Shown here piece after piece: positions 45,103 through 46,442 of a stretch of DNA of 64,000 bases. Position 1 is the first letter of the stretch. The number at the start of each line of letters is the position of its first letter. The DNA is from Eledone cirrhosa (lineage: Eukaryota): NCBI GenBank assembly GCA_964016885.1, contig OZ024752.1:38254001-38318000 (forward strand), written 5' to 3'. The notes under the pieces are model-generated. The model saw only the letters and a list, made by a program, of their open reading frames with translations. It was not told the DNA's origin and ran no database searches. Made by a program: the position numbers and the translations under genes.

Positions 45103-46442
45103 AAATTGAAACAAAATGAAAACGAAATTTCATTTCTCACTCTTAGTATGGCACTTACTTAAATGTAAGTATGCATGTATACGTACATACATATATGTAT
45201 ACAGACGTACAGTAGCATGCACATATATATATATATATATACATATATACATACATATGCATACAGGTACACATACATATATGCACGTATCAGTTTAGCG
45301 GCGCTAACGTCGCTTTGTTCGTTTGTAAACAAACTGAACAGCCTGAATTTATGCCATACGGTGTTAAGGCAACCACGTCACCTTTTTGTTCAACACTGAC
45401 ACAGGAACGATGTACTAGTTTCAAGCTTGTTAGCTATCATCAGCACCGTTTACCCATCTGCCAGATAGTTGAACGTTCGAAAGTATATACTTTCCTTATG
45501 AAAATTAACGGCTGAGCAGCCTAATTTGCATATTGAGTGAGTTAAATCGGTCAGGCATACCGAAAACGATAAATTGAAACAAAATGAAAACGAAATTTCA
45601 TTTCTCACTCTTAGTATGGCACTTACTTAAATGTAAGTATGCATGCATACGTACATACACATATGTATACAGACGCACAGTAGCATGCACATATATATAT
45701 ATACATATACATATATACATACATATGCATACAGGTACACACACATATATGCACGCATCAGTTTAGCGGCGCTAACGTCGCTTTGTTCGTTTGTAAACAA
45801 ACTGAACAGCCTGAATTTATGCCATACGGTGTTAAGGCAACCACGTCACCTTTTTGTTCAACACTGACACAGGAACGATGTACTAGTTTCAAGCTTGTTA
45901 GCTATCATCAGCACCGTTTACCCATCTGCCAGATAGTTGAACGTTCGAAAGTATATACTTTCCTTATGAAAATTAACGGCTGAGCAGCCTAATTTGCATA
46001 TTGAGTGAGTTAAATCGGTCAGGCATACCGAAAACGATAAATTGAAACAAAATGAAAACGAAATTTCATTTCTCACTCTTAGTATGGCACTTACTTAAAT
46101 GTAAGTATGCATGTATACGTACATACATATATGTATACAGACGTACAGTAGCATGCACATATATATATATATATATACATATATACATACATATGCATAC
46201 AGGTACACATACATATATGCACGTATCAGTTTAGCGGCGCTAACGTCGCTTTGTTCGTTTGTAAACAAACTGAACAGCCTGAATTTATGCCATACGGTGT
46301 TAAGGCAACCACGTCACCTTTTTGTTCAACACTGACACAGGAACGATGTACTAGTTTCAAGCTTGTTAGCTATCATCAGCACCGTTTACCCATCTGCCAG
46401 ATAGTTGAACGTTCGAAAGTATATACTTTCCTTATGAAAATT
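45103..46442 (-). mobile_element. Retrozyme-like array: ~2.9 x 468-bp units, one HHR per unit
   Basis: Unit starts at 45103, 45571 and 46039. HHRs at 45406-45450, 45874-45918 and 46342-46386: aacggtg-CTGATGA-tagct..agctt-GAAA-ctag-TA-catcgtt. Confidence 0.85.

Follow-up and report, generated by a model that had tools for sequence, protein, structure and literature searches.

Six A-to-G changes in one unit of an Eledone cirrhosa retrozyme array and their probable origin in RNA editing

How does one unit of an otherwise uniform tandem array come to differ from its neighbours by substitutions of a single type on a single strand? The question is raised by a locus in Eledone cirrhosa, within the window, that is, the whole 64,000-nucleotide stretch of DNA that was analysed (assembly GCA_964016885.1, contig OZ024752.1, forward-strand positions 38,254,001 to 38,318,000). 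A sequence-only reading had described 2.9 units of 468 bp between (TA)n tracts, had assigned a hammerhead ribozyme to each unit and had proposed that T-to-C changes in the second unit, A-to-G on the ribozyme strand, are a retro-copied trace of A-to-I editing of the RNA intermediate. Our analysis supports this proposal: the changes in unit 2 are six out of six A>G, derived, and combined in a unique haplotype, and they are probably ADAR-type A-to-I edits of an RNA intermediate, fixed by reverse transcription. The features of the locus, in window coordinates, are as follows.

44035..45100, no strand: (TA)n target tract, left flank.
45101..46443, minus strand: one-armed retrozyme insertion of 2.9 tandem 468-bp units, ribozyme on the minus strand.
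45101..45568, minus strand: unit 1, unedited form, starting at about offset 1, one of the two usual arm starts in the family.
45176..45292, minus strand: predicted long hairpin of unit 1, about 50 bp in two stems, including an (AU)n tract (-57 kcal/mol, z -4.0).
45406..45450, minus strand: minimal type I hammerhead of unit 1, with the cut predicted after GUA, between 45413 and 45412.
45569..46036, minus strand: unit 2, in which unit comparison shows six A>G changes (ribozyme strand).
45644..45760, minus strand: the same hairpin region in unit 2, with all six changes inside.
45874..45918, minus strand: minimal type I hammerhead of unit 2, without change, placed by its core motif.
46037..46443, minus strand: unit 3, truncated at offset 407 and the same as unit 1 by unit comparison.
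46342..46386, minus strand: minimal type I hammerhead of unit 3, placed by its core motif.
46444..46758, no strand: (TA)n target tract, right flank, in which landmarks of 44363-44800 recur.

TRF finds a period of 468 with 2.9 copies over 45101-46443 (98% matches, 0% indels), and the flanking (TA)n tracts extend over 44035-45103 on the left and 46442-46758 on the right, so that the described layout is borne out. Over their 407 common bases, units 1 and 3 show no difference. Unit 2 departs from both at six positions only (window 45646, 45660, 45676, 45704, 45742 and 45756; unit offsets 78, 92, 108, 136, 174 and 188), every one of them T>C on the plus strand. Because the hammerhead core sits on the minus strand, which is presumably the RNA strand, all six are A>G on the ribozyme strand, as had been read. 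The right flank (46442-46758) resembles the part of the left flank at 44363-44800 and not the part adjacent to the insertion; this repetition may reflect a long target duplication that was trimmed later, or an older tandem duplication.

The hammerhead core CUGAUGA...GAAA...UA is present on the minus strand of each unit, starting at 45443, 45911 and 46379. Stem I is composed of seven pairs, one of them G.U, stem II of the four pairs AGCU/AGCU closed by a U.U mismatch, and stem III of one or two pairs of palindromic sequence. The stems are thus as first drawn, but the ribozyme had also been called clean, which is an overstatement given the U.U mismatch, the short stem III and a sub-threshold Rfam score: the predicted fold comes without stem III and is no better than that of shuffled sequences (z -0.86), and Hammerhead_HH9 scores 18.5 bits where 52 are required (E 0.19). 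Rfam has no hammerhead hit in the array at the gathering score; its other matches are microsatellite-like miRNA models. Among 260 hammerhead motifs in the fetched regions, pair 5 of stem I is G.U in 102, U.G in 20 and A-U in 19 (per-region counts). One double change among the family variants leaves stem I paired, and a 311-bp family has different stems, still pairing, around the same core; such variation supports the hammerhead structure beyond its bare motif. The hammerhead is minimal and weak, and its self-cleavage is a prediction from sequence.

The 38-nt ribozyme core has 10,264 exact matches in the 3.0-Gb genome, and a diagnostic 23-mer marks 6,454 units of the window's subfamily genome-wide. 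Unit GC is 36%, and the array contains no complex open frame of 180 codons or more. The metazoan non-LTR retrozymes, as presented in the accessible text of Cervera and de la Pena 2020 (PMC7229834), are likewise non-coding tandem repeats with a type I hammerhead per unit, low GC and thousands of copies. The window hammerhead combines features of HHR_Amex1 (single-pair helix III, palindromic tetraloop) and HHR_Amex2 (U.U at the base of helix II) from the same text, whereas the 468-bp unit is longer than the RNAs (170-400 nt) and, slightly, than the repeats (150-450 bp) reported in it, and contains a long (AU)n hairpin. The element adds a new member to this known class of animal non-LTR retrozymes, and its insertion in the window is young.

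Comparisons within the genome use an unselected sample, consisting of the first listed core matches on contig C1, and selected regions drawn from lists of the site-108 change, its mirror change and the site-174 change. Both orientations of the element occur in 37 of 55 unselected regions; the window array is one arm. Arms begin after TA-rich DNA at two offsets, ~1 and ~60 (some of the offset-60 matches being microsatellite noise), and the window array starts at offset 1. The length of 468 that is common to all three window units is a minority length among subfamily units. A two-armed insertion at C3:290.03 Mb (L124) has 10 + 10 units of exactly 468 bp, with one change common to all 20 and a single private change among them.

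At all six sites T is the subfamily state, and the C alleles of unit 2 are derived. A three-site haplotype of unit 2 has one occurrence in the genome. The site-174 change is present in five subfamily units, of which only the window's is also changed at site 188; none of the four others, picked by the site-174 change, is hyper-edited. It had been anticipated that the editing reading would fall if the substitutions lacked an A-to-G bias on the ribozyme strand or were alleles shared by a subfamily. The bias in the window array is complete, and the haplotype is unique, although sister subfamilies often have C at site 188 (20 of 51 regions, counting the window); in the same 51-region sample 78 C occurs in two other regions and 92 C in one. 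Unit 2 has no indel and none of the other differences that are diagnostic of sister subfamilies.

The six changes are also clustered. All lie within offsets 71-189, where 36 of the 141 T in the unit are found (P = 2e-4). On the ribozyme strand this part folds into the hairpin at -57 kcal/mol (z -4.0); the opposite strand reaches -29.6. ADAR enzymes deaminate A in double-stranded RNA, with G disfavoured as the 5' neighbour, and reverse transcriptases read the resulting inosine as G. Each of the six changes has a 5' U, which is near-forced by the composition of the hairpin (30/36); four are at predicted paired positions and two, including site 108, are predicted unpaired. Among 24 collected A>G sites, 17 fall on the 36 hairpin A and 7 on the 105 other A, and a 5' G is found at 0 of 24 versus 17 of 117 (p = 0.08), a comparison confounded by composition.

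In 18 unselected multi-unit subfamily arrays, 91 of 98 units are free of private A>G, seven have one and none has two or more. Private changes in these arrays comprise 7 A>G and 14 T>C among 53; changes common to units within an array, which should derive from the template, comprise 11 A>G and 2 T>C among 28 (common versus private, p = 0.005). Ten of these 28 are G>A; most of the ten represent a single polymorphism at offset 150 that enters the tally once for each array. Several of the 28 fall in the (TA)n tract, in which slippage may look like substitution.

A GTAC palindrome within the hairpin, in which offsets 108 and 109 mirror each other, allows the two strands to be compared: A>G on the ribozyme strand is found in 630 copies against 135 for the mirror change. 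When the 35-mer is otherwise unchanged, the estimate is ~365 versus 127, obtained by hand from 58 and 94 plain rows in the first 100 of each list, and on contig C1 the count, also by hand, is 69 versus 11 loci. An additional A>G stands beside the site-108 change in 24 of 100 listed units (15 of 70 loci), whereas an additional mirror-type change stands beside the mirror in 6 of 100 (6 of 75); by locus, this difference in clustering has p = 0.03 (hand count, without the common site-80 allele). The 630 versus 135 asymmetry may also owe something to the amplification of source copies that were already edited and to selection favouring G.U pairs.

The sequence-only reading had suggested a comparison of the substitution spectrum with family copies. 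Unit 2 is A>G throughout, but rare variants across the 51 regions of the wider, older family sample show little bias. In the hairpin arms of these regions, distinct rare variants are 13 A>G versus 10 T>C (p 0.21) and single-array variants 4 versus 8; by array, with the window excluded, the hairpin arms give 16 versus 10 (p 0.07), and the constant part, by array in the 51 regions, gives 19 versus 30. Differences within unselected arrays are near symmetric (C/T 35, A/G 26, of 103), and the genomic (TA)n tracts beside the elements, read in element orientation, give equal counts of 30 and 30. Because the wider-family and within-array spectra are near symmetric, hyper-edited units are rare events over a background of ordinary mutation: the 98 unselected subfamily units include none, the window has one, and a single such array came from the 37 selected regions.

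Two further tallies were rejected as evidence. The genome-wide excess of T>Y over A>R (7,738 versus 2,160) is mostly one subfamily allele: of the first 100 matches listed, 24 are not exact, and 21 of these are due to that allele. The bias in interruptions of the internal (TA)n (128 versus 8) is inflated by family-wide motifs; without them, the counts are 10 versus 4 regions, with the same lean and without significance (p 0.18).

The hyper-edited array among the selected regions, L099 (C1:160.40 Mb; C1:160403900-160413800), is a single array found by selecting on the site-108 change. Its 12 units alternate between two types, A and B, and all 16 of its gap-free varying columns are A/G on the ribozyme strand (C/T in window plus orientation). 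The derived changes form one set in A units and another in B units, five of the columns lie beyond the hairpin, and A-type marks recur in the inverted arm. Such in-phase marks are not expected of errors by a copying enzyme; either they were in the template, or the block was later amplified in DNA. The first A unit and the first B unit are each without one A>G that is present in all later rounds; editing could have been added between rounds, or copying could have switched to a sibling template. In the B units, an A>G at offset 327 lies in hammerhead stem II and turns U-A into U.G at the loop-closing pair, a change that, judged from the sequence, could weaken that cut and favour a dimer.

Other arrays show repeated marks as well. 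One mark set is present in every unit of both arms in L124, L148 and L150. In L145 (C1:75.696-75.702 Mb), six units with one A>G and a period of 460 are followed by units without it and with a period of 466, which is a template change within one arm. In L067 + L144 (C1:69.577-69.587 Mb), an offset-333 change occurs in units three apart and in the third unit of the other arm, with unit lengths of 466, 458, 466, 466, 458 and 466; a three-unit template, followed by a switch, is possible.

The mechanism that we propose would proceed as follows. The minus strand would be transcribed as a multimer, which the weak hammerheads would cut, probably best as dimers, into monomers and multimers, and these would be ligated into circles. 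An ADAR-type enzyme would edit the hairpin of some of the RNA molecules. A borrowed reverse transcriptase, likely of Penelope type, would then be primed in the (TA)n tract, start at one of two fixed sites and travel round the template, reading inosine as G. Anatomy, copy number, substitution spectrum, uniqueness, strand asymmetry and the periodic marks of L099 are observed; transcription, cleavage, circles, the editing enzyme and the mobilising enzyme are steps that we infer, with multimer transcription, self-cleavage, ligation and copying by a PLE following PMC7229834. For the window array, the unedited-edited-unedited order excludes one monomer circle read three times, and the common length of 468, a minority in the subfamily, favours a single source molecule. 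We prefer as template a two-unit circle with one edited half, to which we assign slightly less than an even chance; an uncut linear multimer is a less likely candidate, and two switches between monomer circles are less likely again. Unit 3 stops before any marker that separates these models, and 2.9 units are too few to show periodicity.

The marks could be edits and the periodic arrays nevertheless a product of DNA: two edited monomers of the L099 kind would have been inserted and the two-unit block amplified by unequal crossover, in which case the marks would be silent on circles. Local amplification by unequal crossover is the satellite model set out in bioRxiv 10.64898/2026.07.22.740005 (Discussion), an array of 2.9 units, as in the window, is too short to reveal a period, and a template change within an arm does exist (L145, six units with one A>G and then none). 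Against this, the same marks are found in both arms of the two-armed insertions L099, L124, L122, L148 and L150, arm starts are fixed at two offsets after (TA)n, and the 10 + 10 units of L124 in opposite arms have one private change. Equal homogeneity of both inverted arms is better fitted by one copying event than by two independent DNA expansions, and we regard amplification in DNA as rather unlikely.

Explanations that dispense with editing altogether have to account for unit 2 itself. Its C alleles might have been gained in DNA, by microsatellite-like TA/CA slippage or by gene conversion from a sister subfamily; all six sites fall where purines and pyrimidines alternate, sister subfamilies often have C at 188, and C is found at 78 in two other regions and at 92 in one. 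This is largely refuted, and we hold it to be very improbable: unit 2 lacks both an indel and diagnostic sister-subfamily differences, no donor with its haplotype was found in the genome, the element-oriented flanking (TA)n is symmetric (30 and 30), L099 has such changes outside the microsatellite-like part, and a DNA process should strike both palindrome halves alike, whereas the counts are 630 versus 135. Selection on RNA structure, tolerating A-U to G.U but not A-U to A.C among ordinary mutations or errors of the reverse transcriptase or RNA polymerase, would be in keeping with the preservation of the hairpin when the changes are read as G (-57.0 to -58.5 kcal/mol), and selection among source copies could add to the same asymmetry. 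However, selection filters lineages; it cannot place six changes in one unit between two identical unedited units, nor give 16 same-type differences between the two halves of L099. Private, post-template changes lean to T>C and not A>G, and site 108 is predicted unpaired; we give this account very little credence. An assembly or base-calling artefact in the repeat is scarcely believable, since a haplotype that is unique in the genome cannot come from collapsed copies, errors in the consensus would not be confined to a single transition on a single strand, and other arrays have changes of the same type; public contigs (X1, X2, X3 and X9) skip the hairpin and bear neither way on the six alleles.

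Peptide motifs of reverse-transcriptase type are present in 8 of 116 regions. In one of these (L034:716-1282), a truncated YRDD reverse transcriptase frame is joined without a spacer to a retrozyme arm; its coding strand is the ribozyme strand of the adjoining arm, the sole direct junction of the same polarity, and the junction is likely a template switch from helper mRNA to retrozyme RNA. Homologues of this reverse transcriptase are ~710 aa long with a C-terminal GIY-YIG-like motif. Pfam gave no name to the reverse transcriptase fragments or to five of their homologues, so the term Penelope-type reflects homologue domain order together with sequence motifs, and we presume that it applies to the L034 enzyme. 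Genes with an A_deamin domain (ADAR or ADAT) lie at three multi-exon or multi-segment loci, on C1, C6 and C25. Penelope-like elements with a GIY-YIG endonuclease, in the accessible text of Craig et al. 2021 (PMC8557442), resemble the family in their tandem and inverted truncated copies and their bias to (TA)n or other microsatellites, and non-autonomous multicopy head-to-tail derivatives are reported there (Chlamys). The retrozyme, unlike these elements, is without a reading frame, and the likeness is one of insertion anatomy (PMC8557442).

For animal retrozymes, the copying step, reverse transcription of circles by a borrowed enzyme, is a proposal in PMC7229834, whose accessible text suggests tandem cDNA made on circles, with PLEs as likely helpers. 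That text also describes axolotl hammerheads with a weak helix III that cut better as dimers, with dimeric and trimeric RNAs seen, and raises RNA editing as one possible cause of heterogeneity in mussel circRNA. It shows no editing marks in genomic copies, periodic marks or two-armed (TA)n insertions, and contains 0 occurrences of octopus or cephalopod. The 2026 preprint (bioRxiv 10.64898/2026.07.22.740005), in its accessible portion, treats non-LTR retrozymes as non-autonomous Penelope-like elements, mainly in vertebrates, on arguments from co-distribution and phylogeny; it discusses local DNA amplification instead, states its own evidence on the life cycle to be limited, and has 0 occurrences of 'ADAR'. 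Relative to the accessible parts of both, what is new here is that probable editing marks are fixed in genomic copies and used as a record of the template. A survey of titles and the beginnings of abstracts, with subscription journals mostly outside its coverage, found no editing marks in genomic retrozyme copies and no periodic marks as evidence for a circular template.

Retroviral proviruses hypermutated from A to G have been attributed to ADAR. APOBEC-edited LTR retrotransposons, in the accessible text of PMC4866542, share with the array clusters of one-type, one-strand substitutions fixed by reverse transcription. The changes here differ from both kinds of scar in affecting, as A>G, the RNA strand of a ribozyme element that does not code for protein, and in recurring at the period of the unit, which would report the shape of the template. 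Clustered editing across animals is documented in PMC5625713, in which the octopus sample is the highest among the table rows available and self-folding palindromic repeats are heavily edited; the editing reading of the array does not depend on the host being a cephalopod.

More broadly, retrozyme arrays in the genome may be fossil rolling-circle reads of single germ-line RNA molecules, with A-to-I edits as barcodes, so that the editing enzyme partly writes inherited family variation and edited forms found subfamilies; we judge the chances of this to be even. For it, the window array is good evidence on the editing half and weak evidence on the circle half. If true, the barcodes would reveal monomer, dimer and trimer circles, template switches and edits added between rounds, and the marks would show A-to-I editing of germ-line RNA made heritable through retrotransposition. 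In-phase editing marks make the question of retrozyme copying testable from genome sequence alone.

A second array, of 311-bp units, lies at window 42102-43270, with 3.1 identical units and an exact 215-nt inverted arm from 43056. The 468-bp array had been called unrelated to it, which holds for most of the sequence but not for the ribozyme (79% over 29 nt) and the start motif, both of which the two arrays share. The 311-bp hammerhead is built on the core of the 468-bp unit, with AACA as loop II and a palindrome in stem III; its array begins with the same TAAATTG motif after (TA)n and is otherwise unlike the 468-bp unit. More CTGANGA...GAAA motifs, of other families and several of them in inverted pairs, occur at window 25267, 25588, 28606, 48509, 52291, 53294, 53308 and 56183.
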